Of a DNA stretch of 64,000 nt, positions 14,772-28,060 are shown in pieces. Position 1 is the first letter of the stretch. Each line of letters starts with the position of its first letter. This DNA is from Dehalococcoidia bacterium (lineage in GTDB: Bacteria; Chloroflexota; Dehalococcoidia; UBA2979): positions 928,001 through 992,000 of the forward strand of contig OZ219871.1 of NCBI GenBank assembly GCA_964291495.2, given 5' to 3'. Below the pieces are notes generated by a model. It did not search any database, was not told where the DNA came from, and saw only the letters and a program-made list of their open reading frames with translations. The translations under genes were made by a program, and so were the position numbers.

Positions 14772-16712
14772 CTAGCCGCCCATCGCCCCCTCGCCCTCCA
14801 TGGCGTCGGCCTCACAGCTGGAGACCCAGACAGCCGCCGGGCCAGCGATGCCATCCGCGAAGGCCGCGTTGAACGTGGTGTTCACGATCGCGACGGCAGT
14901 GGTGCTGTAAACCTGCCAGCTGGAGCCGTCGTGGATCCAGATGGCCGCGCCACCGGGGCAAGCCGTCTCGGCAGCCGCGTGGAGGTCCTCAACCGAGCCG
15001 CCGCTGAAGATCATCAGCGGAGCGGTACCACTGAGAGTGGCGTCGTCGCTCGGCATCGGCTCTTCCGGCTCTTCCATCGCCTCGCCGATGTCCAGCGCGA
15101 CGCGGTGGTTCACGTCGCCGGCGGAGATCAGGATCTCCGACGAACCCGGGTTCGAGGGAGCGATGAACGTGAACTTGGACTGACCGTTGGAGGTCATCTC
15201 CGAGCCGCCCTCGCCCTCGTCCTCGATGAGGCCACCGCCGTCGACCTTGCGGACCTTGACGGCGGTGATGCCGACGAGCACGTCCTCGTCGTCCCACACC
15301 GAAACCGTGATCGTGGTAACGCTGCCCGGCTCAACCATGGCCGGAGCATCAGTCGTGATGCTGTTCGGCTTGCCGGCGACCTCGATCACGGCCGAAGCCT
15401 TGATCGTGCCGATCGCGAAGTTGAGCGTGTGCGGACCGCGCGTCGCGTCGTCGTCGGTTCCCGCTGCATCCGTAGCCGTCACGTGGACGACACACTTGCC
15501 GTCGGCATTGGTGCCATCGTCCGCGAAGACCTCGGTGGACGGGCTCGCGAGGTCGCCGACAGCGTCGTTACCACACGCCGGGATGTTCTTCGACGAATCC
15601 GTGGGGTGGATGAAGTCCTTGCTGTACCCGGTGCCCACGCTGTCGGTGGCCGCGTCCGCCGCCGGCGTGTCCTTCTCGGTCACGACGAGATTGGCGTCGT
15701 CAGTGGGACCTTCCACTTCCTTGGCCGGCGACGTGACAGGCGCGACAACCTGGCCGGAGACCGGGTTGCTGGCGCCGTCGGTGACGGTCAGCACGACGTA
15801 GACCGACCCGCCGATCTCGACAGAGCCCTGCATCGGCTCGGCCGAAAGGTTCTTGGCCTTGCCGTACATCGTCACGTCGAGCTGATCGGTGAGGCCGCCC
15901 ACGGTCACCGTGACGGTGGCCACGCCCTCACGACCGGCGCCGTCCAGCCTGACGGTGGCAAGGCCGGCAACGGTGGTGGTCTCGGTAGTAAGCGGGTTGT
16001 CGATGGTATCGGTCCAGATCGAGCAGACCTGGACACCAGACACCGCGACGGTGTCAGTGCCACCGGACGGGGCCGTTGTCGCGGGACAGGCCAGCGTGCC
16101 GAGCGTGGTGACGAAGGTCACCCGCTGCTCGTCGAGGCCGGTCGGCGTCGACGCGGCGTTCTTGACCGTGGCCACGATGTCCGCCTCGTTCGGGCCGCCG
16201 TCGTCCGCGGTGTTGTTGTCGTCATTCGCCGCGATCGTCTTGCTGCTCGTCGCCGCCTTAAGCGACCCCAGCAGCGTGCCCTTCGAGACGGTGATGACCT
16301 TGGTAACCTGGGCCGTAGGCGAGCTTCCGGCGACGCCCTCGACGCTCACGAGGATGTACCCCTCGCTAGAGTCCTCGTCCACGTTCAGGTCGACCTGAAT
16401 GGTGTTGGCGGTGTCGCTCTCGTCGCACCCTGTGCCGTCGGCACAAGAGATCGACTGACCGTCGTTCGCGGCGAAGCTCGCTCCGACGCCGTCGCCCGTG
16501 CCGGTGATGCTCACCTGCGCGAGCGCGCCTTCCACCAGAATCTGGACCGTGTCGCCCGGCGCCGCGGTTGCCGAGTTAGCGGCCGCAGCCAGCTCGACAT
16601 CGGCGGCCTCGGCCGTCGGAGTCGAGGAGACCGATACGAGCACCGCGAGCGCTACCGCGAAGGCGGCGGCGACGGCGAGGCCGTAGGCTCCCAACTTTGT
16701 TACGTAACTCAA
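14772..16712 (-). CDS. Large secreted acidic Thr/Ala/Val-rich protein with Ig-like repeats, putative S-layer or major surface protein
   Basis: TTG start after GAGGG; signal peptide (..TPTAEA); beta-strand-rich repeats; long upstream leader; more A/T-ending codons than neighbours. Confidence 0.65.
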   Translation of the reverse strand: MSYVTKLGAYGLAVAAAFAVALAVLVSVSSTPTAEAADVELAAAANSATAAPGDTVQILVEGALAQVSITGTGDGVGASFAANDGQSISCADGTGCDESDTANTIQVDLNVDEDSSEGYILVSVEGVAGSSPTAQVTKVITVSKGTLLGSLKAATSSKTIAANDDNNTADDGGPNEADIVATVKNAASTPTGLDEQRVTFVTTLGTLACPATTAPSGGTDTVAVSGVQVCSIWTDTIDNPLTTETTTVAGLATVRLDGAGREGVATVTVTVGGLTDQLDVTMYGKAKNLSAEPMQGSVEIGGSVYVVLTVTDGASNPVSGQVVAPVTSPAKEVEGPTDDANLVVTEKDTPAADAATDSVGTGYSKDFIHPTDSSKNIPACGNDAVGDLASPSTEVFADDGTNADGKCVVHVTATDAAGTDDDATRGPHTLNFAIGTIKASAVIEVAGKPNSITTDAPAMVEPGSVTTITVSVWDDEDVLVGITAVKVRKVDGGGLIEDEGEGGSEMTSNGQSKFTFIAPSNPGSSEILISAGDVNHRVALDIGEAMEEPEEPMPSDDATLSGTAPLMIFSGGSVEDLHAAAETACPGGAAIWIHDGSSWQVYSTTAVAIVNTTFNAAFADGIAGPAAVWVSSCEADAMEGEGAMGG

Positions 16713-17094
16713 ATTGTTCCCTCTTTCTTGGAGGTACTCATTTCGTTGTTGCGTTCCACTTCTCGCTGCCCGATCGCCCTCCTTGTACGGGGCTTCCGCT
16801 TGCGGGTGGGCCGTATCCGGGGGGCTTGCGCCGCCGCTCGAGCTGGACGCCGCAAGCAAATCGCTCACGCGGGGGATACCCCGCTGGCGCCGTCCCGCCG
16901 GCCCGTTCCGCTGGAAGCCTGTCCTTCCTCCCGCGCCTGCCTCGACGCGCACGGGACGCCTCGCGCCCCGGACGGCAAGGCCCGGCACATGGGGAGTAAC
17001 GCGCGGGGACGCCCTCGGGTTAACTCCGGGGCCGCCCCGCGAGCGGTCCTCGCCACCCCCGTTTGTAGCGAAGGCGTGGGTTGCCGTCCACTCG

Positions 17095-17785
17095 GCAAGG
17101 GGGGGTTCCCCCCCACACCCCCCCAGCACGATCCACTCTGGCTTCGTGGGGCTGCGGGGGTGGTGTGTGGGTTTTGTGCAGGGTGGGCTGCGGGCTCATC
17201 GCCCGCAGGCGCTTGCCCGGGGCGGGCTGCGCCCGCTCCGGTCTCCTCTCCCCTTCCGGTCCCCTCTCCCCGAGGGAGAGGGCGGGGGGTGAGGGGGTCC
17301 GGTTCCGGCTCCCTCCCCCCTCGCGGGGGAGGGCGGGGGGTGAGGGGGAGCGCGCGCAGCGCGCCCTCCGGCCCCGCCGGAGTCCCCCTCACCCTAACCC
17401 TCTCCCTCCGGGGGAGAGGGGACCGGAGGCGGAGGCGCGCGGGAGTCCTCCCCCTCACCCCCGCCCTCTCCCTCGGGGAGGGGACCGGACCCGTCCCCTC
17501 CGTCATTCCGGCGAACGCCGGAATCCAGGCACCGCCGGCCAGCGCCATCCTCGGAAGTCTCGTGCGCCCTCGGGGGCGGGCTGCGCCCGCCGGAGTCCCC
17601 CTCACCCTAACCCTCTCCCTCCAGGGGAGAGGGGACCGGAGGCGGAGGGGACCGGGATCCGGCTCCCTCTCCCCTCGCGGGAGAGGGCGGGGGGTGAGGG
17701 GGAGCGCGCGCAGCGCGCCCTCCGGCCCCGCCGGAGTCCCCCTTACCCTAACCCTCTCCCTCCGGGGGAGAGGGGATCGGAGGGT
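17095..17785. repeat. REP-like mosaic (cluster 4)
   Basis: Multiple CCCCT(C/T)ACCCTAACCCTCTCCCTCC(G/A)GGGGAGAGGGG copies (~17386, 17597, 17738) and GTCATTCCGGCGAACGCCGGAATCCAG at ~17502. Confidence 0.9.
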
Positions 17786-17800
17786 TGGGTGCGGCGGCGG

Positions 17801-19006
17801 CTACTCCCCGCCGGCGACGATGCAGACGAGGTCCTCTTGCTCGAACGAGGAGTAGCCCTCGCAGACGTAGCCGTCGCCGTCGTGGTCGAACTCGAGCGGC
17901 ACGCGGAAGTCCGGGAAGCCGCCGCCGGCGGCGAGCGCGCGGGCCGGGATGTAGCGCGCCGCCTCCAGGCAGGAGCCGTAGGCGAGCGCCAGCATGTTCG
18001 CGCGCTCCCGCTCCGCCCAGGTCTCGAACTCCGAGTAGAAGCGCACCAGCTCCACCCCGAACGCCGCCTCGAACGCCCCGTGCAGCTCCGCGCCGGCGAG
18101 GACGTCCTCGTAGAACTCCAGCCAGTCCTCGAACGTCCCGTAGTTCTCGACGGCGAACAGCATCGCCGCCGCCATCAGGTCGTCGTGCGCGCGGCCGGCG
18201 CGGAAGTCCGTGGCGAGCTGGTGGAAGATCGCCGAGCGGTAGCGATCGTCGCGCACGCTGGGCCGCTCGCCGTTCAGGTACCAGAACCAGTAGTACTCGA
18301 AGGTGGCGACGCCGACCCAGCGCACGGGCACGTAGGGGACCTCCACGGCGCGGATCAGCCACTCCCTGGCGATCGCCGCCGTGTCCGTGCGGCACTCCGG
18401 CCCGAAGAACATGTGCTGCCCGTGCTGGAAGGAGCAGGTGCTGGGCAGCTCCTCGAGCTTCTCGCCGAAGGCGTCCTGATAGCGCACGTTGAGGCCGCCG
18501 GTGGAGTAGGCGATGTTGAGCGTGATCGGGCCCTGGTGGGTGAGGCCGAACCGCGTGTTGGCGTCCTTGATGATCGCGCGCAGCTCGGTGGTGATGGCGC
18601 GTTGCGCCGAGCGCTGGTCCGACATGCCGCGCACCGAGCAGCAGCTCGCGCGCCCGGTCGGCGCCTCGCCGGGCGGGAAGAACGGCGTGGCCGCCGGCCC
18701 GACGACGAAGGTCGGTTGCCGGACCTCGTCGACCTCGAAGGTCACGGGCACGGAGAAGCTGACGGGGTCGCTGACGAGCAGGCCGTCGGCCTCGGGGGAC
18801 TCGTGCAGCGAGACGAGGTAGTCGTGTGTGGTCCACTGCTTGCCTTCCTGGCGAGTGCTGACGAAGGCGGCGCGGATCTCGGGAGCGAGCCAGAACTGCA
18901 GCTCGAGGGTGGTGCTGGTCTCGATGGTGCGGGTGGCGGCGAAGGCGCTGAGCCCTCCGGCGATGGTCAAGATGGCGGCGAGCGCGGCGATGACGGCGTG
19001 TTTCAT
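17801..19006 (-). CDS. Secreted hypothetical protein with C-terminal Excalibur-like Ca-binding motif
   Basis: Signal peptide; degenerate zincin-like region (AREW..., WVGVATFEYY); SCLEAA...DHDGDGYVCE. Confidence 0.6.
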   Translation of the reverse strand: MKHAVIAALAAILTIAGGLSAFAATRTIETSTTLELQFWLAPEIRAAFVSTRQEGKQWTTHDYLVSLHESPEADGLLVSDPVSFSVPVTFEVDEVRQPTFVVGPAATPFFPPGEAPTGRASCCSVRGMSDQRSAQRAITTELRAIIKDANTRFGLTHQGPITLNIAYSTGGLNVRYQDAFGEKLEELPSTCSFQHGQHMFFGPECRTDTAAIAREWLIRAVEVPYVPVRWVGVATFEYYWFWYLNGERPSVRDDRYRSAIFHQLATDFRAGRAHDDLMAAAMLFAVENYGTFEDWLEFYEDVLAGAELHGAFEAAFGVELVRFYSEFETWAERERANMLALAYGSCLEAARYIPARALAAGGGFPDFRVPLEFDHDGDGYVCEGYSSFEQEDLVCIVAGGE

Positions 19007-19104
19007 GGTTCCAGCTCCCTCGCAGGGTCGCGTCGAGCGTAGCGCTCCGCGCCCCGCCGGACCCTGACCCATCGAGGGCAGCGCAGCGCTGTCTGCCTGT
19101 CTTG

Positions 19105-20125
19105 GGCCCCTCCGGTCCCCTCTCCCCGAGGGAGAGGGTTAGGGTGAGGGAGGATCCCGGCGGGTGGCAGGTGAGGGAGGATCCGCCCTCTGGAGTTCCG
19201 TTGCGCCCTCGGGCGTTCTTGCCCGGCGGGCGCCGGACGAGCGCGCTGCGCGGCTCGGCTGGATTCCGGCTTTCGCCGGAATGACGGGGAGAGGGAGCCG
19301 GAATGACGGGGAGAGGGAGCCGGAATGACGGGCGCCCTCGTCCGGCCCCTCTCCTGGGGGAGAGGGAGTGCTTCGTGGGGGGAGACCCCCCACACCCCCG
19401 CGGGTGAGGGGGCTCGCCCGGCCGTCGCGATCCTCGAAGGGTTGGTGCGCCCTCGGGGCGGGCTGCGCCCGCCTCCCCCTCACCCTCCGCCCTCTCCCGC
19501 CGGGGGAGAGGGGACCGGATCCGGCTCCCTTTCCGTCATTCCGGCGAATGCCGGAATCCAGGCTCGGCAGACACGCGAGCGCCCTCGGAAGGTTGTTGCG
19601 CCCTCGAGGGCGGGCTGCGCCCGACTCCCTCTCACCCCCGCCCTCTCCCGCCGGGGGAGAGGGGACCGGATCCGGCTCCCTTTCCGTCATTCCGGCGAAC
19701 GCCGGAATCCAGGCTCGGCAGACACGCGAGCGCCCTCGGAAGGTTGTTGCGCCCTCGAGGGCGGGCTGCGCCCGACTCCCTCTCACCCCCGCCCTCTCCC
19801 GCGGGGGGAGAGGGAGCCGGACCGGCCCTCGGAAGGTTCGTGCGCCCTCGGGCTGGCGCGCCGGCGGCGCGCTCCCCCTCACCCTCCGCCCTCTCCCGCC
19901 GGGGGAGAGGGGACCGGACCGGCCCTCGGAAGCTCTGTGCGCCCTCGGGAGCTCCGGGTGGGGGTGTGGGGGCGTGGCCCCCACGAAGGGGGGCGCGGGG
20001 CGCAGCCCCGCTGCCGTTGAGGGCGGGTGGGTGGGGCGAGCCGCGCGCCGCGCGCGCGCTCTGTCCGGCGTGCGCCTCCCTCACCCTCCGCCCTCTCCCT
20101 CGGGGGGAGGGGACCGGAGCCGGCC
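19105..20125. repeat. REP-like mosaic (cluster 5, largest)
   Basis: Tandem ~150-bp duplication (~19490-19800), short GGAATGACGGGGAGAGGGAGCC tandem (~19278-19330), and many CCCTCTCCC/GGGAGAGGG hairpins. Confidence 0.9.
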
Positions 20126-20149
20126 TCGGCACGTGGTGACATGGGCGGC

Positions 20150-20181
20150 TTGACGCGTCCTTGGCACATCTGTTCTAGTAC
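20150..20181 (+). promoter_or_regulatory. Putative promoter with LexA (SOS) box-like motif upstream of the phage-like operon
   Basis: TTGACG at 20150; GCAC-ATCT-GTTC at 20164-20175 (one mismatch to GAAC-N4-GTTC); TAGTAC downstream with non-ideal spacing. Confidence 0.4.
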
Positions 20182-20320
20182 GCGCCGCCGGGACGCCCTC
20201 GCGTCTCCCCTGCACGCGGAGGGCGTCCCGGCAGCGGGCGAGGCGGGAGGAGGCGCGAGGCGCGATGAACGCCGGAACGGGTTCGGGACACCACAGGCAG
20301 GGCGGAACGGAAGGAACGCA

Positions 20321-20620
20321 GTGTCGATCTTCTCGGGGCTCGCGATTGCGGGCGAGCTGGCGACCGCGGGAAGCGGAGCGGCGAACGCCGCCTGGTTCGC
20401 GCATCGCGCCGCTGCTGCGGCGGGGCCGCGGCGCCTCGCGGCGTTGCTGCTGATGCTGCTCTTCGGCGCGGTGGCGCTGGACGCGGCGGCGCACGTGCTG
20501 CCCGGGGCGCCCTCGTGGCCCTCGCTGCAGGGCGCGCTGCTGCGGCTGCCGCTGCTGGCGGCGAACGTGCTGGCCGGGATCGCGATCCTCGCGGGCCCGC
20601 GCCGGGAGCGCGCGCAGTGA
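20321..20620 (+). CDS. Small membrane protein, first gene of the packaging operon
   Basis: GTG after AAGGAA; hydrophobic segments; GTGA coupling to the next ORF. Confidence 0.55.
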   Translation: MSIFSGLAIAGELATAGSGAANAAWFAHRAAAAAGPRRLAALLLMLLFGAVALDAAAHVLPGAPSWPSLQGALLRLPLLAANVLAGIAILAGPRRERAQ

Positions 20621-20784
20621 GCCCCGGGGCCGGCCCGCTCGCACTCGCGCTGCACGAGGAGCGCTACGAGGCCGCCGCGCTGCGGCTCGCGCTCGGCGTC
20701 CTCGCGGCGCTCGCGCGGGCGGCGGAGTCGGCGCCCGGCACGCGCGAGGAGCTGATCGCGCTGCTCGCCTCGGAGGGCGCGTGA
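20617..20784 (+). CDS. Small helical hypothetical protein
   Basis: GTGA overlaps on both sides; LALALHEERYEAAALRLALG...REELIALL. Confidence 0.55.
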   Translation: MSPGAGPLALALHEERYEAAALRLALGVLAALARAAESAPGTREELIALLASEGA

Positions 20785-21116
20785 GCGCAGTTGCGTCCGG
20801 AGGAGCCGGGGCGGCCGCCCGGGAGGGCTTCTACGAGTCGGCGCTGGCTGCGGCGGACGCCGCGGCGCTGCGCGAGGCGCGGACGTTGTCCGGCCTCGAC
20901 GACGAGGTTGCGCTGCTGCGGGTGCAGCTGCGGCGCGCCTTCGCGGACGCGGAGGCGGACCCGCGCACGGTGCAGGCGGGCGTGCGGCTGCTGGTGCAGG
21001 CGCTGCTCGCGCAGCACCGCCTCTCGCCGCAGCAGGCGGAGCACCTCGGCGAGGCCGTCGCGAACGTCCTCGAGGAGTTCGGCGAGGTGCTGGGCGCGGC
21101 CGGGGCGGCGGCGTGA
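20781..21116 (+). CDS. Putative terminase small subunit-like protein
   Basis: GFYESAL...GLDDEVALLRVQLRR, resembling the (H)GFY...L..EIALLR pattern of TerS-like proteins; lies upstream of TerL. Confidence 0.5.
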   Translation: MSAVASGGAGAAAREGFYESALAAADAAALREARTLSGLDDEVALLRVQLRRAFADAEADPRTVQAGVRLLVQALLAQHRLSPQQAEHLGEAVANVLEEFGEVLGAAGAAA

Positions 21117-21385
21117 GCCTCCGAGGGCGCAACAACCGATCGAGGCGGCAGCCCCGCCGGCGAGCCTGGATTCCGGCTTCCGCCGGAATGACGGGAAGGG
21201 AGGCCGGAATGACGGGGAAGGGACCCTCCGGCCCCCTCTCCTGGGGGAGAGGGTTGGGGTGAGGGGGCTCGCCGGCCGGACTGCCGGCTCGAAGGGTTGT
21301 TTGCCCTCGGGGGTTGGGTGCGGCGGGCTGCGCCCGCCCTCCCTCACCCTCCGCCCTCTCCCTCGGGGAGAGGGGACCGGAAGGG
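21117..21385. repeat. REP-like mosaic (cluster 6) inside the packaging operon
   Basis: CTGGATTCCGGCTTCCGCCGGAATGAC, CCCCTCTCCTGGGGGAGAGGG, CCCTCTCCCTCGGGGAGAGGG. Confidence 0.85.
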
Positions 21386-21416
21386 ACATGGAACGAAGCC
21401 GATGGAGGTAGCGGAG

Positions 21417-21650
21417 ATGGAGCGAGTGGAGACGGACCAGACGGAAGGCGCCGGCGAGCGGCTGGCGCTGGTGTTGCGGCGCATCGCGGGCGTCGAGACG
21501 CGCGACCGGCCGCCGGAGCACGACCTGCGCGCGCGCATCGACTACCTCGAGCGCGACGCCGGGGAGATGCGGATGCGGGTCAACGGCCTCTTCTTCGGCC
21601 TGATCGCGCTCGCCGCCGGCGAGATCCTGCTGCGGGCCCTGGCCGGATGA
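21417..21650 (+). CDS. Small coiled-coil protein with C-terminal TM (XhlA/holin-like architecture)
   Basis: SD GGAGG at 21404; RIDYLERDAGEMRMRVNGLFFGLIALAAGEILLR; ATGA overlap with TerL. Confidence 0.6.
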   Translation: MERVETDQTEGAGERLALVLRRIAGVETRDRPPEHDLRARIDYLERDAGEMRMRVNGLFFGLIALAAGEILLRALAG

Positions 21651-23122
21651 GCGCGACGACAACGCTGGACGCGCCCGCATCCGTACCCGCCGAGACGGGG
21701 CCGCCCTCGGAAGGCGCGAGCGGGCTGCCGCGACTGCGGCCCTACCAGGCCGCGGTCGCGCGCGCCGTCCTCGAGCGCGTGTTGGGCGGCGAGGGCGGCT
21801 CGATCTCGGTGCAGATCGCGCGCCAGGGCGGCAAGAACGAGCTCTCGGCGCAGCTCGAGCTGGTGCTGCTGCTGACGCGCCAGCGCGCCGGCGGGACGAT
21901 CGTGAAGTGCGCGCCCACCTTCGAGCCGCAGGCCGCGATCTCGCGCGATCGCCTGCTGGCGCGTGCGGACGGCGCGCGCCTCGGGGCGATCGTGCGCCGC
22001 GAGGGCGCGGCGTCGGTGCGCTGCGGTCGCGCCGCCGCGCGCTTCCTCTCGGCGGGGCCGGGCGCCTCGGTGCTGGGTCACACCGCGGACCTGCTGCTGG
22101 AGGTCGACGAGGCGCAGGAGGTGCCGGCCGAGAAGTTCGACCGCGACTTCCGCCCGATGGCCGCCTCGGCCAACGCGCCGGTCGTCTTCTACGGCACGCC
22201 GTGGGGGCCTCGATCGCTGCTGGCGCAGGCCGAGGCCGCGCATCGCGAGGCGGAGCGCGCCGACGGCCGCCGTCGCTGCTTCCGCTTCGACTGGGAGCAG
22301 GTGGCGGCGCACAACCCCTCCTACGGCGCGTACGTGGAGGAGGAGCGGCGGCGGCTCGGTGAGCGCCACCCGCTGTTCCGCACGCAGTACCTGCTGGAGG
22401 AGCTGCACGAGCAGGACCGCCTGCTCGACGGGGCCGCCCTCGCGCAGATCGAGGGCGCGCACGAGCGCGTGCGCACGCCCGTGCGCGGCGAGCGCTACGT
22501 CGCCGGCCTGGATCTCGCCGGACCCGCGTTGGAGGGCGGACGAATAGCGGAACAACACGACTGGACGGTGTTGACGATCGCGCGCGTGCGCGCGGGCAGC
22601 AGGGGCGGAGCCGCCCTGCCGCTGATCGAGGTCGTCGAGCACCAGGCCTGGCAGGGCGCGCCGGCGGGCGAGCTGCTGGACGCGCTGGCGGACCGCCTCG
22701 CGCGCGTCTGGCGCGTGCGCCGCGTCGTCGTCGACGCGACCGGCCTCGGCGGCCCGGTCGCCGATCTGCTGGCGCGGCGCCTGCCCTCGGGGCGGGTCGT
22801 GCCGCTCACGTTCACGGCGGAGCGCAAGTCGCAGCTCGGCTTCGGGCTGCTGGCGGCGGTGCACTCGGGCCGGCTGCGGCTCTATCGCATCGACGGGTCG
22901 CGCGAGGCGGCGGAGTGCCGCGTGCAGCTGGAGCGTGCTCGGGCGGCCTACGGCGAGCGCGGGCAGATGCAGTTCTCCGTGGACCCCTCGGAGGGCCACG
23001 ACGACTACCTGATGAGCCTCGCGCTGGCCGTGCACGCCGCGCGCGACGAGGGCGGAGCGCGCACTGCGCGCGGCCGCACGCCGACCGACGCGATCGAGGC
23101 GGCGACGGCGGTGGCGGCGTGA
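21647..23122 (+). CDS. Phage terminase large subunit
   Basis: Q-motif LRPYQ, Walker A ARQGGKNE, Walker B LLEVDEAQ, motif III YGTP, RNase H nuclease VAGLDLAG / VVVDATGLG / HDDYLMSLALA. Confidence 0.9.
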   Translation: MSATTTLDAPASVPAETGPPSEGASGLPRLRPYQAAVARAVLERVLGGEGGSISVQIARQGGKNELSAQLELVLLLTRQRAGGTIVKCAPTFEPQAAISRDRLLARADGARLGAIVRREGAASVRCGRAAARFLSAGPGASVLGHTADLLLEVDEAQEVPAEKFDRDFRPMAASANAPVVFYGTPWGPRSLLAQAEAAHREAERADGRRRCFRFDWEQVAAHNPSYGAYVEEERRRLGERHPLFRTQYLLEELHEQDRLLDGAALAQIEGAHERVRTPVRGERYVAGLDLAGPALEGGRIAEQHDWTVLTIARVRAGSRGGAALPLIEVVEHQAWQGAPAGELLDALADRLARVWRVRRVVVDATGLGGPVADLLARRLPSGRVVPLTFTAERKSQLGFGLLAAVHSGRLRLYRIDGSREAAECRVQLERARAAYGERGQMQFSVDPSEGHDDYLMSLALAVHAARDEGGARTARGRTPTDAIEAATAVAA

Positions 23123-23499
23123 GGGCCTCGGAGGAGCCGCAGCCGGAGCTGGTGCGCGCGGACGCGCTGCCGGAGCAGGTGGAGTACCGGGACCAGGGCT
23201 GCGACCTGTTCCCCTCATGCCTGCGCTGCCCGCTGCCGCGCTGCCGCTACGACGAGCCGGGCGGGGCGCGGGCGATGCTGAATCGCATCCGCGATCGCGA
23301 GATGCGGCGGCTGCGCCGCGAGCACGCACTCCCGGTGGACGAGATCGCGCGCCGCTACCGCGTCTCGCGCCGGACCGTCTTCCGCGCCCTGCAGCACGGC
23401 CCCGCCTCGCGAGGGCGTCGCGGCGCCTCCGGAGGCGCGCACGGTCCTCGCGGCGCACGCCGGGCAGACCACGCCGATCGGAAGGAGATCGAACGATGA
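23119..23499 (+). CDS. Cys4 cluster plus C-terminal helix-turn-helix protein
   Basis: GTGA overlap with TerL; YRDQGCDLFPSCLRCPLPRCRYD followed by VDEIARRYRVSRRTVFRAL. Confidence 0.8.
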   Translation: MRASEEPQPELVRADALPEQVEYRDQGCDLFPSCLRCPLPRCRYDEPGGARAMLNRIRDREMRRLRREHALPVDEIARRYRVSRRTVFRALQHGPASRGRRGASGGAHGPRGARRADHADRKEIER

Positions 23500-24722
23500 C
23501 ACAGGCAGCAGTCGCGCCGGCCGGCGCCACCCCGTTCCCTCGCACCCTCGCCCAGCGCGACCGGGAGCGCCTCGCCCGCTACCGCGAGTTCCTCGACTAC
23601 TACGAGGGGCGGCGGGGCGCGGCGCCGGGCGGCCCGCGCGAGCGCTCGCTGAGCTTCAACTACGCGCGCGCCTTCGTGGAGAAGGGCGCCTCCTACCTGA
23701 TGACCTCCCACCGCCCGACCGTGGTCGAGGCGGACGGCGGCAGCACCGCCGAGGCGGAGCAGGCGCTGCTCGAGCTGTGGGAGGCGAACGACCTCGAACG
23801 GCTCGACCTCGAGAGCGAGTTCGACACGGCGACGCTCGGCGACGGCGCGTTCAAGGTGAGCTGGGACGAGCAGGAGCAGCGCGTGGTGGTGAGCGCGCCG
23901 GACGTGCAGGGCCTGTACGTCTGGTGGCTGGGCGACGACGTGCGCCGCATCCGCCGCGTGGCCGCCCGCTACGAAACGCCCTCGGAAGACGCGGAGGCGC
24001 GGACGGGCCGGCTGCCGCGCGGCCCCGGCGGCCGGACGCCCGAGCGCGTCACGCTGACCGAGGTGTGGACGGCGGAGCGCTTCGAGTTGTGGGTGGAGGA
24101 CGAGCCCGTCGAGGCGCGGGCCAACCCGTACGGCGTGATCCCGTTCGTGATCTTCCCCAACACCCCGCGTCCGAAGCAGTTCTGGGGCATCTCCGACATC
24201 GAGCCGCTGCGCGAGTCGATCGTCGAACTGAATCGCGCGATGACCCAGCTGAGCCGCATCCTCGAGCTCTCCGGCAACCCGATCGCCGTCCTCGAGAACG
24301 TCGAGGAGTCACGCGGCATCGCGGTGCAGCCGGGGGCGGTCTGGGAGCTGCCGGAGGAGGCGCGCGCGTACCTCCTCGACCTGCTGCAGGGTGGCGGCGT
24401 GCGGCTGCACGCCGACTACCTCGGGCAGGTGTACCGGACGATGCACGACCTGGCGGAGATGCCGCGTATCGCGTTCGGAGACGGATCGGGCGACCGCTCC
24501 GGCGTCGCGTTGCGGCTGGAGCTGGATCCGCTGCTGCGCAAGGTCGCACGCAAGCGGTTGATCCGCAGCGCTGCGATGCGCAAGCGCGACCGGCTGATGC
24601 TGCGCGTCCTCGCGCACCACACGGGCCGCCGCTTCGAGGGCGTCCGCACCGAGATCGCCTGGTCCGCCATCTTCAGCGGCGACGAGACGGGGCTGCTCGA
24701 GGCGGCGCGAATCGCCTCGTAG
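23496..24722 (+). CDS. Phage portal protein, SPP1 Gp6-like
   Basis: SD AGGAG; YYEG..., FNYARAFVEK...YL, NPYGVIPFVIFPN, GISDIE, SGVALRLEL.PL..K. Confidence 0.85.
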   Translation: MTQAAVAPAGATPFPRTLAQRDRERLARYREFLDYYEGRRGAAPGGPRERSLSFNYARAFVEKGASYLMTSHRPTVVEADGGSTAEAEQALLELWEANDLERLDLESEFDTATLGDGAFKVSWDEQEQRVVVSAPDVQGLYVWWLGDDVRRIRRVAARYETPSEDAEARTGRLPRGPGGRTPERVTLTEVWTAERFELWVEDEPVEARANPYGVIPFVIFPNTPRPKQFWGISDIEPLRESIVELNRAMTQLSRILELSGNPIAVLENVEESRGIAVQPGAVWELPEEARAYLLDLLQGGGVRLHADYLGQVYRTMHDLAEMPRIAFGDGSGDRSGVALRLELDPLLRKVARKRLIRSAAMRKRDRLMLRVLAHHTGRRFEGVRTEIAWSAIFSGDETGLLEAARIAS

Positions 24723-24736
24723 CCCGGCGAGGCGGA

Positions 24737-26107
24737 TTACCCGCCGGCGGACGCGACTGGGGTGGCGTAGAGGGCCTCCCGGTAGGCCTCGAAGGCGTCG
24801 TAGAAGTCGTCGGCGGAGATGCCGAAGACCTTCTCGAACGCATCCTCCCAGTCCTCAGCGGCCGCGAGCCGCCGGTAGTACTCGATGTAGGCGGCAGTCT
24901 CCGTGAAGCTGTCCGGCCACCCGACCGCCTGCGGCGCGAACTCCGCCTCGTCCCCGGCGAAGGCGACACGCCCCTCCAGCCACTCGATTGCGACGGCGGC
25001 CAGGCTGTAGGCGGGCGCCTCACTGCCGTAGAACACGCGGATCAGCACGAGGTCGCCGAGCGGCTCCGTGATGTGCTTTGAGTGCCGCCAGCGAGCGTTG
25101 CGCAGTTGCTCGCCCGTGATGTTCCAGACCCCGAGCCGGTAGAGGCCGCCCGCGTACGTCGCGGTGCCCTCGGTCATCCAGGCCGGCGAGCGCGTCCTCC
25201 CGGCAAGGTGGCGTTGCAGGATGTGGAAGTACTCATGCGCCAGCGTCACCGCGCGCAGCGGGTAAGCCATGACGCTGCTGCTCAGCAGGATCCGGCCTGC
25301 GAGAGCTCCCGCGAAGATCTCCAGGTCCGGGTGGTACTCCACCGCGAACGGCGGAGGTTTGATCCCGTAGCGCTCGGCGAAGAACGTCACCACGGCGGTC
25401 ACGTCGTCGCGAAGCGATGCCCGCTCCTCCTCGGTCAGCTCATCCCCGAGCTCGAACGTCGTCCCCACGAGCTCCGACTGCCACCAGCGCGCTTCGTCGC
25501 TCAGCCTGATCCAGAACGCGTCGCCGCGATTCAGCTCGCGTAGCGTGTTGGCCGAGTCTTGCGCGTCCGGCCGGTACCGCTCGTACCGCCGCGTGACCGC
25601 GTTCCAGCGCCTCGCCTCCAGCAGTGCATCGCCGAAGCGTTCGGCCGACTCGGGGAACGGCGCTCCGTCTCGCCCTCCCCAGCCGACGAGGTTCCAGCCC
25701 GCCGCAAGGGAGACCAGCACGCCACCCTCGGACGGCGTGAGGGTCCACTCGACGATCGAGTCGCCGCCGATGTAGAGCCACAGCCCCATGCCCGTGCTCA
25801 CCTGCCTCAACGCATAGCGAGGAATGCTGGTTGGGAACGCCCGCAAGTAGCGCTCCGCCTCGTTGTCCCACGCGTAGACGCGCTCCAGTTCCGGAATCGC
25901 GTCGAAGACATCGGAGACGGGACCATCGGGCCCGAGCCAGGCGGCCATGTTCCAGCCGGGCTGCAGCTGCGTCGTCAGCGTGCCCGTCCCGGACTCTGCC
26001 CCCGGCTCCTCCGCCGAGGCAGTGGCGGATGTCAGCGCAAGCGAGGCGCTGAGCGCGACCGCAAGGAACAGACCGACAAGGGACAGACGAAGACGCCTCG
26101 GCAACAT
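24737..26107 (-). CDS. Secreted zincin-type metallopeptidase-like protein with two N-terminal GWN repeats
   Basis: Signal peptide; LQPGWN and LAAGWNLVGW repeats; LAHEYFHILQ (HExxH) plus WMTEGTATY. Confidence 0.75.
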   Translation of the reverse strand: MLPRRLRLSLVGLFLAVALSASLALTSATASAEEPGAESGTGTLTTQLQPGWNMAAWLGPDGPVSDVFDAIPELERVYAWDNEAERYLRAFPTSIPRYALRQVSTGMGLWLYIGGDSIVEWTLTPSEGGVLVSLAAGWNLVGWGGRDGAPFPESAERFGDALLEARRWNAVTRRYERYRPDAQDSANTLRELNRGDAFWIRLSDEARWWQSELVGTTFELGDELTEEERASLRDDVTAVVTFFAERYGIKPPPFAVEYHPDLEIFAGALAGRILLSSSVMAYPLRAVTLAHEYFHILQRHLAGRTRSPAWMTEGTATYAGGLYRLGVWNITGEQLRNARWRHSKHITEPLGDLVLIRVFYGSEAPAYSLAAVAIEWLEGRVAFAGDEAEFAPQAVGWPDSFTETAAYIEYYRRLAAAEDWEDAFEKVFGISADDFYDAFEAYREALYATPVASAGG

Positions 26108-26293: not shown

Positions 26294-28060
26294 ATGCGCC
26301 TGCTGCTTGCCGCCGCCCTGCTCGTCGCCGTCTCCACCCTCGCAGACCGCGCCGCAGCCCCCGCCTCAGCCTGGCCACCCGCAAGCATCGACGTCTCACC
26401 GGTCGTGCGGCTGGACGCCGGGGTCGGAGTGTTCGCGGATCCGGGGGGCGCGCCGGTCGCCCCGGAGGCGGCGCCGCGCCTGCACGCCGGCCTCGACGAG
26501 CCGTTCGAGTTCGCGCGGCTCGGTCCGGCCTCGCTCCCGCCGCCGGGGGAACACCCGGAACAGTCCTTCGCCGGCGTCGCCGTCCTGGTGGGCGCGGACA
26601 TCTGGCACGAGGCGGGCTTCAGCGGCCACGGCGTGCGCGTCGCCGTCATCGACGTCGGCTTCAGCGGCTACGAGGAGGCGTTCGCCGAGGCCGCTGCACT
26701 CGTGCGCGCGCGCTCGTTTCGTGCCGACGGCAGCCTCGACGGCGGCTCCGGGCACGGGCTTCGTGCGGCATCGATCGTGCATGAACTGGCGCCGCGCGCC
26801 GAGCTGCTGCTGCTCAGCTTCTCCGGCACCGAGACGTTGGCCGCCGCCGTCGAGTACGCCATCGAGGAGGGCGTGGACATCATCTCCTTCTCGATCGGCT
26901 TCGTGCATAACGGCCCGGGCGACGGGACCGGGCCCGTCAACGAGATCGTCGATCGCGCGGTTGAGGCGGGGGTGCTCTGGGCCGCGGCCGCCGGGAACTG
27001 GGCCCGGCAGCACTGGGCCGGGCCGTTCAGCGACCCCGACGGCGACGGCGTGCACGAGTTCAGCCCGGGCGAGCCGCTGAACGGCCGCCACTACGCAGCC
27101 GGCGACCTGATCAGCGCCTCGCTGCGCTGGGACGACCAGTGGGGCGCTGCCTGCAGCGACTACGACCTCGAACTGGTCGGCCCGGAGGGGACGCTCGTGC
27201 AGGCCTCGCGGGGCGTCCAGGACTGCGACGACAACCCCGTCGAGGGGTTACGCGTGCTCGCGACGACGAGCGGCCGCTACGCGGCACGCGTGGTCGCCGC
27301 ACCCGGGACGTCCGAGTCGTCGAACGGGGAACACGCGCTCAGCCTGCTGCTGCTCGGCACACCCGGTCGGGACGAGCGGCTGGACTGGTTCGAACCAGCC
27401 GGCTCAATCTCGCAGCCGGCCGATCACCCCTCAGTGGTCGCGGTCGGCATACTCAGCAGCGCCGGCGAGGTCGCCCGCTTCTCCTCGCGCGGTCCGGCGG
27501 CGGACGGCAGGCTCAAGCCCGATCTGCTCGCGCCGACCGTGCTCCCCGACGCAGACGCAACCGGTCCGACGTTGGGGGGCACCTCGGACGCCGCGCCGAT
27601 CGTCGCCGCCGTCGGCGCATTGCTGATCGAGGCGATGCCGGAACTGTCAGGCGAGGAAGTGGCCGCGGCGCTGCGCGAACGCGCCCGGCAGCGTGGGGCA
27701 ACGCCGCCGGACCTCGAACGCGGTCCGGCGATCGTGCAGCTCGGCGCGCTCGACGGCCTCGGCCCGCTGCTGCCCCCGGGCGGCCGCGAGGCGACGCTGA
27801 GCGGCGAGCGCGACCCCGAGGGCGGTTACACGGCGTTCAGCTTCAGCGGCCCGGACGGCTACCCGCTGCGCTTCCTGCACCTGCTGCTGGACGACCCGCA
27901 GCCCCTCGCGATCTGGCGCTACAACGCCAACGAGGAGCGCTGGATGCTCCACGTCGCCGGCGCCCCGGACTGGGTGAACGACCTCGAGAGCTTCGATGGC
28001 GGAGACGAGCTGTGGATGCGTTTCCCGGTCGCGGAGGTTCCGGTCACGGAGGACAACTGA
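26294..28060 (+). CDS. Secreted S8 (subtilisin-like) serine peptidase
   Basis: VAVIDVG (Asp), HGLRAA (His), AAAGN, FSSRGP..GR.KPD, GGTSDAAPIVA (Ser). Confidence 0.88.
   Translation: MRLLLAAALLVAVSTLADRAAAPASAWPPASIDVSPVVRLDAGVGVFADPGGAPVAPEAAPRLHAGLDEPFEFARLGPASLPPPGEHPEQSFAGVAVLVGADIWHEAGFSGHGVRVAVIDVGFSGYEEAFAEAAALVRARSFRADGSLDGGSGHGLRAASIVHELAPRAELLLLSFSGTETLAAAVEYAIEEGVDIISFSIGFVHNGPGDGTGPVNEIVDRAVEAGVLWAAAAGNWARQHWAGPFSDPDGDGVHEFSPGEPLNGRHYAAGDLISASLRWDDQWGAACSDYDLELVGPEGTLVQASRGVQDCDDNPVEGLRVLATTSGRYAARVVAAPGTSESSNGEHALSLLLLGTPGRDERLDWFEPAGSISQPADHPSVVAVGILSSAGEVARFSSRGPAADGRLKPDLLAPTVLPDADATGPTLGGTSDAAPIVAAVGALLIEAMPELSGEEVAAALRERARQRGATPPDLERGPAIVQLGALDGLGPLLPPGGREATLSGERDPEGGYTAFSFSGPDGYPLRFLHLLLDDPQPLAIWRYNANEERWMLHVAGAPDWVNDLESFDGGDELWMRFPVAEVPVTEDN

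Follow-up and report, generated by a model that had tools for sequence, protein, structure and literature searches.

Why does a chromosome of the Dehalococcoidia carry the DNA-packaging genes of a tailed phage among host genes? The question arises from a stretch of 64,000 nucleotides (G000:C5:928001-992000, hereafter the window) of a Dehalococcoidia bacterium whose assembly comprises 3.08 Mb at 71% G+C and is 93.7% complete. An earlier sequence-only reading had recognised a packaging operon there and proposed that it belongs to a co-opted system split over several loci rather than to a decaying prophage. Our analysis supports this proposal for this genome and its clade, and each condition that had been named as refuting it turned out in its favour. 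The operon is very probably the packaging half of a vertically inherited, selectively maintained, non-autonomous set of genes for a phage-derived particle. The other half, with genes for a putative scaffold, a capsid, an adaptor and a tail hub, lies on the same contig at a distance of about 300 kb.

Reading of the open reading frames (ORFs) at window positions 20321-24722 confirmed the run of seven co-oriented genes on the + strand that had been described:

20321-20620, + strand: g1, 99 amino acids, hydrophobic and membrane-like
20617-20784, + strand: g2, 55 amino acids, a small helical protein
20781-21116, + strand: g3, 111 amino acids, a short protein resembling a terminase small subunit (TerS), immediately 5′ of the gene for the terminase large subunit (TerL) throughout the class
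21117-21401, no strand: gap of 285 bases between g3 and g4 holding a repeat element, the only junction without overlap
21402-21650, + strand: g4, 82 amino acids, with a helical N-terminal part and a hydrophobic C-terminal end
21647-23122, + strand: TerL, 491 amino acids, with ATPase and RNaseH-like nuclease domains
23119-23499, + strand: g6, 126 amino acids, with a zinc ribbon of four cysteines (Cys4) and a helix-turn-helix (HTH), always located between TerL and portal
23496-24722, + strand: portal, 408 amino acids, SPP1-type

Five of the six junctions are 4-base GTGA/ATGA overlaps, as read from the sequence. The presence of a TerL and an SPP1-type portal was borne out by Pfam and PHROGs. TerL matched Pfam Terminase_6C (E 1.5e-7; 31.9 bits, cut-off 22.6) and four PHROG TerL families, and it is the only protein in the genome to match Terminase_6C. 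The ATPase and nuclease motifs of TerL had been called intact; indeed, in an alignment of 24 sequences, at least 95% retain the Walker A-like (RQxGKN), Walker B (hhhExDE) and coupling motifs as well as the three nuclease Asp motifs. The portal matched SPP1_portal (E 7e-14) and phrog_64 (E 1e-20), and the genome encodes no other portal belonging to either of the two Pfam families. The Cys4-HTH architecture claimed for g6 also held, since C28, C34, C37 and C42 are invariant and the HTH is present in 26 aligned homologues. Furthermore, g6 matched phrog_836 ('late transcriptional activator', E 6.5e-6) and, just under the cut-off of 24.6 bits, HTH_23 (E 5e-5, 23.4 bits); in a profile search of its alignment against PDB sequences only weak, generic HTH matches were obtained. 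These matches point to g6 as a candidate late-gene activator or DNA-recognition factor.

For g1, g2, g3 and g4 no family match was found in Pfam or PHROG searches, the sole match of g4 being a spurious, sub-threshold Pfam match. The description of g3 as TerS-like stood in part. The protein itself belongs to no family, and the label is retained because of its operon position and because its homologue in G038, a genome of the same class, matched the TerS families phrog_1889 (E 6.6e-9), phrog_370 and phrog_509 (to E 1.3e-4), as well as NCBIfam TerS_not_xtmA (E 4e-5) below the cut-off. An alignment of 15 sequences showed that g3 is conserved across the class and that in the protein of this genome the basic N-terminal motif is largely lost. 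Its model is all-helical (mean predicted local distance difference test score, pLDDT, 73.7) and gave no fold match and none in BFVD at E <= 0.001, and a profile search of the g3 alignment against PDB sequences returned chance-level matches only. Homologues of g1, g2 and g4 were confined to the own genus and family. The g1 homologues of these relatives precede the module, and those of g2 were detected at L019, L020 and L255-L260. A role of g1 as a holin-like accessory protein is possible.

The sequence-only reading had reported no capsid genes. This is correct for the window, but not for the genome. A whole-genome search revealed a single HK97-fold capsid gene, about 300 kb from the packaging operon, as part of an orphan head locus of the kind that had been suggested as a check. 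Its genes are arranged on one strand and are followed by a convergent ruvB:

first gene of the second locus, same strand as the capsid: scaffold-position protein, 212 amino acids with a likely true start giving about 162, an acidic coiled coil
C5:1254417-1255304, same strand as the scaffold, adaptor and hub genes: capsid, 296 amino acids, epsilon15-type
third gene, same strand: adaptor, 221 amino acids
fourth gene, same strand: hub, 656 amino acids

The capsid matched NCBIfam MCP_gp7_epsi_15 (E 2e-58; 198 bits, cut-off 75) and phrog_212 (E 1.4e-71), and Pfam Phage_capsid and SU10_MCP were matched as well. The adaptor matched Pfam SU10_adaptor (E 1.5e-9). Taken together, the head module is of the epsilon15/SU10 podophage kind, with 198 bits for NF045672 (cut-off 75), 39 for PF24175 (27), 28.3 for PF17236 (24.1) and 52 for PF05133. 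The protein in the scaffold position had no family match; judged by position and composition, it is probably the scaffold. The flanks of both loci consist of host genes. An encapsulin was considered and rejected in view of the portal, the terminase and the Phage_capsid match, and a tailocin was rejected as a head is present and neither sheath nor tube.

The hub gave a single weak family match, to phrog_1887 ('tail protein', E 0.002), and a profile search of its alignment against PDB sequences yielded 0 matches. Its AlphaFold model, computed from a 29-row alignment, reached a mean pLDDT of 93.2 and a predicted template modelling score of 0.89. The model matched Mu gp44 (1wru) in Foldseek (E 1.3e-14) and aligned with extracellular contractile injection system (eCIS) proteins, VgrG and T4 gp27 relatives over about 300-318 residues within residues 17..656 (VIA Z 23-25). 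Residues 42..336 form an inserted six-bladed propeller of the fucose-lectin/sialidase type (Z 24). On the strength of these model matches, the protein appears to be a baseplate hub of the Mu gp44/T4 gp27 type with an inserted lectin-like propeller. A complex prediction for hub and adaptor scored 0.00, which counts neither for nor against an interaction. Apart from the hub, no tail genes were found beside the cluster in this genome, in a search that did not include dedicated nozzle models.

Comparison with related genomes showed how the two halves belong together. In G038 (1.5 Mb, 51% G+C), all genes are located on one strand between housekeeping genes, save one insert. The order is g3 homologue, TerL, an inserted surface-protein gene on the opposite strand, Cys4-HTH gene, portal, scaffold, capsid, three small variable genes (one encoding a LamG domain), adaptor, a small membrane protein and hub. 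Homologues of the accessory genes of G038 are absent from the genome studied here. We also examined 80 genome loci centred on the capsid gene, all from Dehalococcoidia or Chloroflexota metagenome-assembled genomes and many of them short contigs. Downstream of the capsid, the adaptor is present in 68 of the 80 and the hub in 60; the scaffold is found ahead of it in 52, and ruvB adjoins the hub gene in 32. A block of g3, TerL, g6 and portal within 10 kb upstream of the capsid was seen at eight of these loci. Between capsid and adaptor, many genome and IMG/VR loci carry a variable insert of 0-3 kb (e.g. L016:2199-3582) that is absent here; in many low-GC relatives it encodes three proteins, one of 154 amino acids, one with a LamG domain and one of 78 amino acids, which could be decoration or fibre parts.

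The spacing between portal and capsid differs by family: the genes are adjacent, about 50 kb, 112 kb or 170-190 kb apart, and 0.3-2 Mb apart in the own genus. In G013 a distance of up to about 2 Mb separates the two loci; some relatives have the whole set in a single cluster of about 12-22 kb. Ancestrally, TerS-like gene, TerL, Cys4-HTH gene, portal, scaffold, capsid, adaptor and hub were arranged in a single cluster. As the spacings differ among families, this cluster has come apart repeatedly, and on each occasion both halves were retained. In the own genus it is split into the packaging half in the window and the scaffold, capsid, adaptor and hub half about 300 kb off.

To follow the inheritance of the element, we determined its distribution. 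TerL is present in all 18 genus genomes and in 36 of 41 relatives searched, mostly as a single copy, and is thus not patchy within the lineage; its identity declines in steps, from 95% to 46%, as relatives become taxonomically more distant. A sample spread evenly over the class comprised 301 genomes, 223 of them of high quality, and took in an unpublished genome, G264. Of the 301, 172 (134 of the 223) proved to carry the capsid and 182 the portal, nearly always as a single copy. A comparison of the two tables gave about 160 genomes with both, 12 with the capsid only, 22 with the portal only and 107 with neither. The tallies for capsid and portal run in parallel in the individual families (16/17 and 16/17, 15/17 and 16/17, 11/12 and 11/12, 0/17 and 0/17, 0/7 and 0/7, 0/6 and 0/6). 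Two single-contig genomes of 1.5 Mb in group g64, G079 and G155, contain a portal match (E 3e-92 and 3e-81) and no capsid match to our query, and their sister group g92 has the full block from portal to hub (L253, L254); the two genomes could reflect partial loss or a different element.

A scan of 185,579 species genomes yielded 482 loci with a capsid relative, the best 80 of which are 70-96% identical; across the class, capsid identity ranges from 56 to 96%. For a maximum-likelihood capsid tree we used 73 rows from the class sample, with 23 host-family codes and at most nine rows per family. The tree follows the host families, as it requires 23 changes of host label where the minimum is 22 and the mean of shuffled labels is 58.9; none of 200 shuffles was as low. 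Twelve of the 15 tabulated families each occupy one side of a branch. Synteny gave the same picture, since the genes flanking the packaging operon are conserved in all four close relatives examined (G001, G004, G010, G012). In genus members that are 71-73% identical the flanks differ and the module is intact.

Selection was estimated by pairwise Nei-Gojobori ratios of non-synonymous to synonymous substitution rates (dN/dS) between this genome and genus-level relatives. The ratios are well below 1 and near those of host genes:

portal: 0.02-0.11
capsid: 0.13-0.27
TerL: 0.20-0.33
g6: 0.10-0.32
g3: 0.05-0.36
adaptor: 0.26-0.35
hub: 0.21-0.32
scaffold: 0.20-0.40
g1, at genus level: 0.11-0.35
g4, within the genus: 0.16-0.73, the least constrained gene
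ruvB (host): 0.06-0.13
clpB (host): 0.09-0.19
dsbA (host): 0.15-0.42

The dS values of module and host genes are in the same range, which fits co-divergence and argues against recent transfer; dS obtained by this method is crude at 90% G+C in third codon positions. Thus, both halves of the gene set are inherited vertically and are under purifying selection.

Several observations weigh against a maintained particle system. The clustering of the capsid tree at family level could also come from host-specific phages. The element was not found in five of 16 genomes of the own family or in whole families (0/17, 0/7 and 0/6), which makes it dispensable and repeatedly lost. TerL is disrupted in five of the 18 genus relatives: in G011 the reading frame shifts around codons 61-64, within the Walker A region; in G014 the protein ends after residue 423, and the locus lacks g6 and portal; in G017 the match contains a TAG and the protein ends after residue 384, only 25 residues of g6 being left; in G016 there is a TGA stop in the match; and in G009 the match covers only residues 218-490. 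Some of these disruptions may be long-read assembly or indel errors, and those in G014 and G017 look like real decay. In this genome, as in the own family, the C-terminal end of the portal is about 55 amino acids shorter than in most class homologues (mostly 450-465 amino acids). We recognised no genes for lysis, fibres or head completion in this genome, and Amidase_2 is absent; the parts list may thus have gaps, or the particle may be non-functional. A search of sequencing runs for the stretch listed no RNA run, and the best DNA runs listed are metagenomes.

Part of this evidence is what an old defective prophage remnant, slowly decaying and with no current function, would leave behind: the disrupted TerL or g6 genes in five of 18 genus relatives, the absence from many genomes and whole families, the lack of recognised lysis and fibre genes and the repeat element inserted within the operon. 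However, in this genome all eight core genes are open, and dN/dS values of 0.02-0.4 are comparable with those of host genes. The capsid retains its 56-96% identity across the class, the catalytic motifs are kept, and both halves persisted after independent splits in several families. A neutral remnant would not have stayed intact over class-level divergence, and we consider this explanation improbable.

Another explanation would be an element that is still mobile, whether a very small temperate phage or a satellite that forms its own capsid, takes its tails from a helper phage and moves among Dehalococcoidia. In its favour, 338 contigs labelled viral in IMG/VR carry a close capsid relative. 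The best 80 of these 338, however, are fragments of 4-27 kb in which the genes have the order of the host loci, and no extra phage genes were detected in them by the queries used. We read these contigs (L103-L182), from their gene content, as probable pieces of Dehalococcoidia chromosomes that were called viral via hallmark genes. Such fragments of a chromosomal element would inflate virus counts for samples rich in Dehalococcoidia. Free phages are only 25-42% identical in their closest homologues. Among cultured phages, capsid homologues do not exceed 42% identity (293 records, with Pseudomonas siphophages as the best matches) and TerL homologues do not exceed 31% (six records); the hub had no match among them.

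The loci themselves likewise speak against mobility. No tRNA, integrase or attachment (att) site was found at either of them, and each of the three tyrosine recombinases of the genome lies either at a distance of over 100 kb or on a different contig. The genome contains no PF04860 portal, tape measure (PhageMin_Tail), second terminase nuclease domain or second capsid, and no helper prophage is recognisable at its completeness of 93.7%. The features by which an integrated prophage or satellite is known, namely integrase, att site or tRNA, a module for regulation and replication, patchiness at strain level and a helper, were not encountered. In addition, the element is single copy, has the fixed neighbour ruvB at 32 of 80 loci and shows dS equal to that of host neighbours, and two halves 300 kb apart could hardly be co-packaged.

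A further point in favour of mobility is the existence of related, differently ordered modules in other Chloroflexota classes. In a phylum-wide sample the capsid query matched 40 of 301 genomes, 20 of these 40 outside the class and 47-56% identical. At ten of the out-of-class loci (L243-L252) the order is portal, adaptor, scaffold, capsid and a large protein, and TerL is also present in the modules. The portal there is 32-46% identical, the large protein of 590-916 amino acids belongs to no family, and one locus has an Amidase_2 lysin gene. Two loci with listed ORFs, L245 (6365-12212) and L247 (4958-15025), have host-like flanks. These modules may be a sister family of reduced or domesticated elements or remnants of related prophages. 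On balance, a live mobile element seems very improbable. IME1, the subject of a preprint on Dehalococcoides viruses, is an unrelated element without tailed-phage genes.

We therefore return to a maintained particle and to how it might work. On our model, the Cys4-HTH protein would switch the genes on; scaffold, capsid and portal would build a prohead; the TerS-like protein and TerL would cut DNA and pump it into the prohead; the adaptor would close the portal; and a trimeric gp44/gp27-type hub with its six-bladed lectin-like propeller would serve as minimal tail and receptor-binding tip. We infer in this way that a particle assembles, packages host DNA and delivers it. Since the genes are 0.3-2 Mb apart in the genus and no replication or integration genes accompany them, the particle would be unable to spread its own genes and would carry host DNA only; a separation of 300 kb-2 Mb would exceed the capacity of any capsid of the epsilon15 type. 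The explanation that we favour as a whole is a fixed particle system of about eight core genes, vertical in Dehalococcoidia, non-self-propagating and of a kind with either gene transfer agents (GTAs) or PBSX, and we put its probability at roughly 0.6.

In the broad sense, GTAs have chromosomal packaging and structural genes without genes for integration, replication or lysogeny, and are inherited vertically in a host clade under purifying selection; all of this was found here. The parts list and the apparent impossibility of self-packaging suggest that the element may act as a GTA, a tentative proposal to which we give somewhat less than an even chance.

A domesticated particle without gene transfer would be the alternative, i.e. 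a PBSX-like killer particle or another use such as DNA release. In the killer version host DNA would be packaged as a by-product, and the lectin-propeller hub would attach to competitor cells and damage them. All that speaks for vertical inheritance and purifying selection speaks for such a particle as well, and the hub is the most variable of the conserved genes (33-87% identity where the capsid has 70-96%), which fits an arms race in surface recognition. There is also a precedent in Bacillus subtilis PBSX, which packages 13-kb host fragments and acts as a bacteriocin. On the other hand, the killer particles described depend on contractile or long tails, and no sheath, tube or tape measure is present here. 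The conserved TerL motifs and the portal dN/dS of 0.02-0.11 argue that selection acts on DNA packaging itself. A particle without gene transfer is thus unlikely, though less so than a remnant.

How does the set compare with known systems? The head-tail cluster of RcGTA contains a PF04860-type portal, a prohead protease, a tape measure and a siphovirus tail. GTAs of the RcGTA type in Alphaproteobacteria resemble the present system in having chromosomal, phage-derived head and packaging genes that are vertical over a large clade and under purifying selection, are split over several loci, lack integrase and replication genes and have been lost in some lineages. Origin and build, however, are unrelated. 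Here the capsid is of the epsilon15 type with a separate scaffold and no recognised prohead protease, and the portal is SPP1-type; with neither a PF04860 portal nor a PhageMin_Tail tape measure in the genome, and no tail tube, the element falls outside the RcGTA-like family. It has about eight core genes against about 17 in RcGTA, its tail consisting of adaptor and gp44-type hub. Two papers were also consulted for this comparison (PMC5721377, PMC9765227).

With epsilon15/SU10 podophages the element shares the epsilon15 gp7/SU10_MCP capsid, the SU10_adaptor and the order portal-scaffold-capsid-adaptor. In contrast to these phages, which are at most 42% identical among cultured representatives, no nozzle, needle, fibres, ejection proteins, replication or lysis genes were recognised here, in a search without dedicated nozzle models, and the distal part is a gp27/gp44 hub in the style of myo- or siphophages. 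PBSX is likewise a chromosomal, non-propagating particle set kept by selection, and both would package host DNA; yet PBSX is a full myovirus-like particle of one species group, whereas the present set is minimal, with only a hub as tail, and occurs class-wide at unlinked loci. Capsid-forming phage-inducible chromosomal islands (cf-PICI) are similarly small, with their own terminase, portal, capsid and connector and no tail. These satellites possess integrase, regulation and replication modules and are mobile, patchy and helper-dependent, none of which was found here. A full-text literature search returned no description of this element.

The surroundings of the operon in the window show some further features. 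Contrary to the sequence-only reading, which had seen no compositional shift, the G+C content over the module is slightly raised (0.75-0.78 compared with 0.66-0.76 in the rest of the window). A scan of window positions 19000-25200 for promoters and terminators found no sites and is uninformative at 75% G+C. The 20-base core of the repeat in the gap between g3 and g4 has 33 exact copies in the genome, four of them in the window (19479, 19878, 20080 and 21343). This G+C-rich repeat is clustered at window positions 17100-20100 upstream of the module, with one copy within it, and is read as 'GEG..G/PLP..' pseudo-ORFs on both strands. In relatives that are 71-73% identical (L258, L259) the gap is absent and g3 and g4 abut; the copy between them is confined to close relatives of this genome.

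Directly downstream, at 24737-26107 on the - strand, a gene for a 456-amino-acid protein is convergent with the portal gene. It had been taken for a secreted peptidase. The convergent orientation was verified, but the protein matches no Pfam family, and a signal-peptide-like start and an HExxH motif were read from the translation only. A secreted S8 subtilase was confirmed for the next gene, at 26294-28060 on the + strand. Both genes keep their position in the four close relatives examined. Upstream of the module, at 14772-17129 on the - strand, a 785-amino-acid protein rich in Thr, Ala and Asp is encoded, probably a surface protein; relatives carry a diverged gene, 36-44% identical, at its place.

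Dehalococcoidia include organohalide respirers used in bioremediation, abundant marine groups of the SAR202 type and sponge symbionts. The majority, which have small genomes, have yet to be cultured, and their gene flow is poorly understood. To our knowledge, only a handful of independent GTA lineages have been recognised, none of them in Chloroflexota. It is conceivable, with odds a little below even, that Dehalococcoidia possess an independently evolved, class-wide GTA with a minimal particle of eight genes, in which scattered genes work in trans. If this is true, the related modules in other Chloroflexota classes would place the domestication, or several domestications, deep in the phylum, and hundreds of short 'viral' contigs in IMG/VR would be explained as host loci. 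We know of no smaller particle parts list than a head, an adaptor and a lectin-propeller hub, and this minimal architecture is attractive for structural work and for asking what is minimally needed to package and deliver DNA. For the Dehalococcoidia themselves, a conserved host-encoded DNA-packaging particle would provide a concrete, testable route for gene flow.

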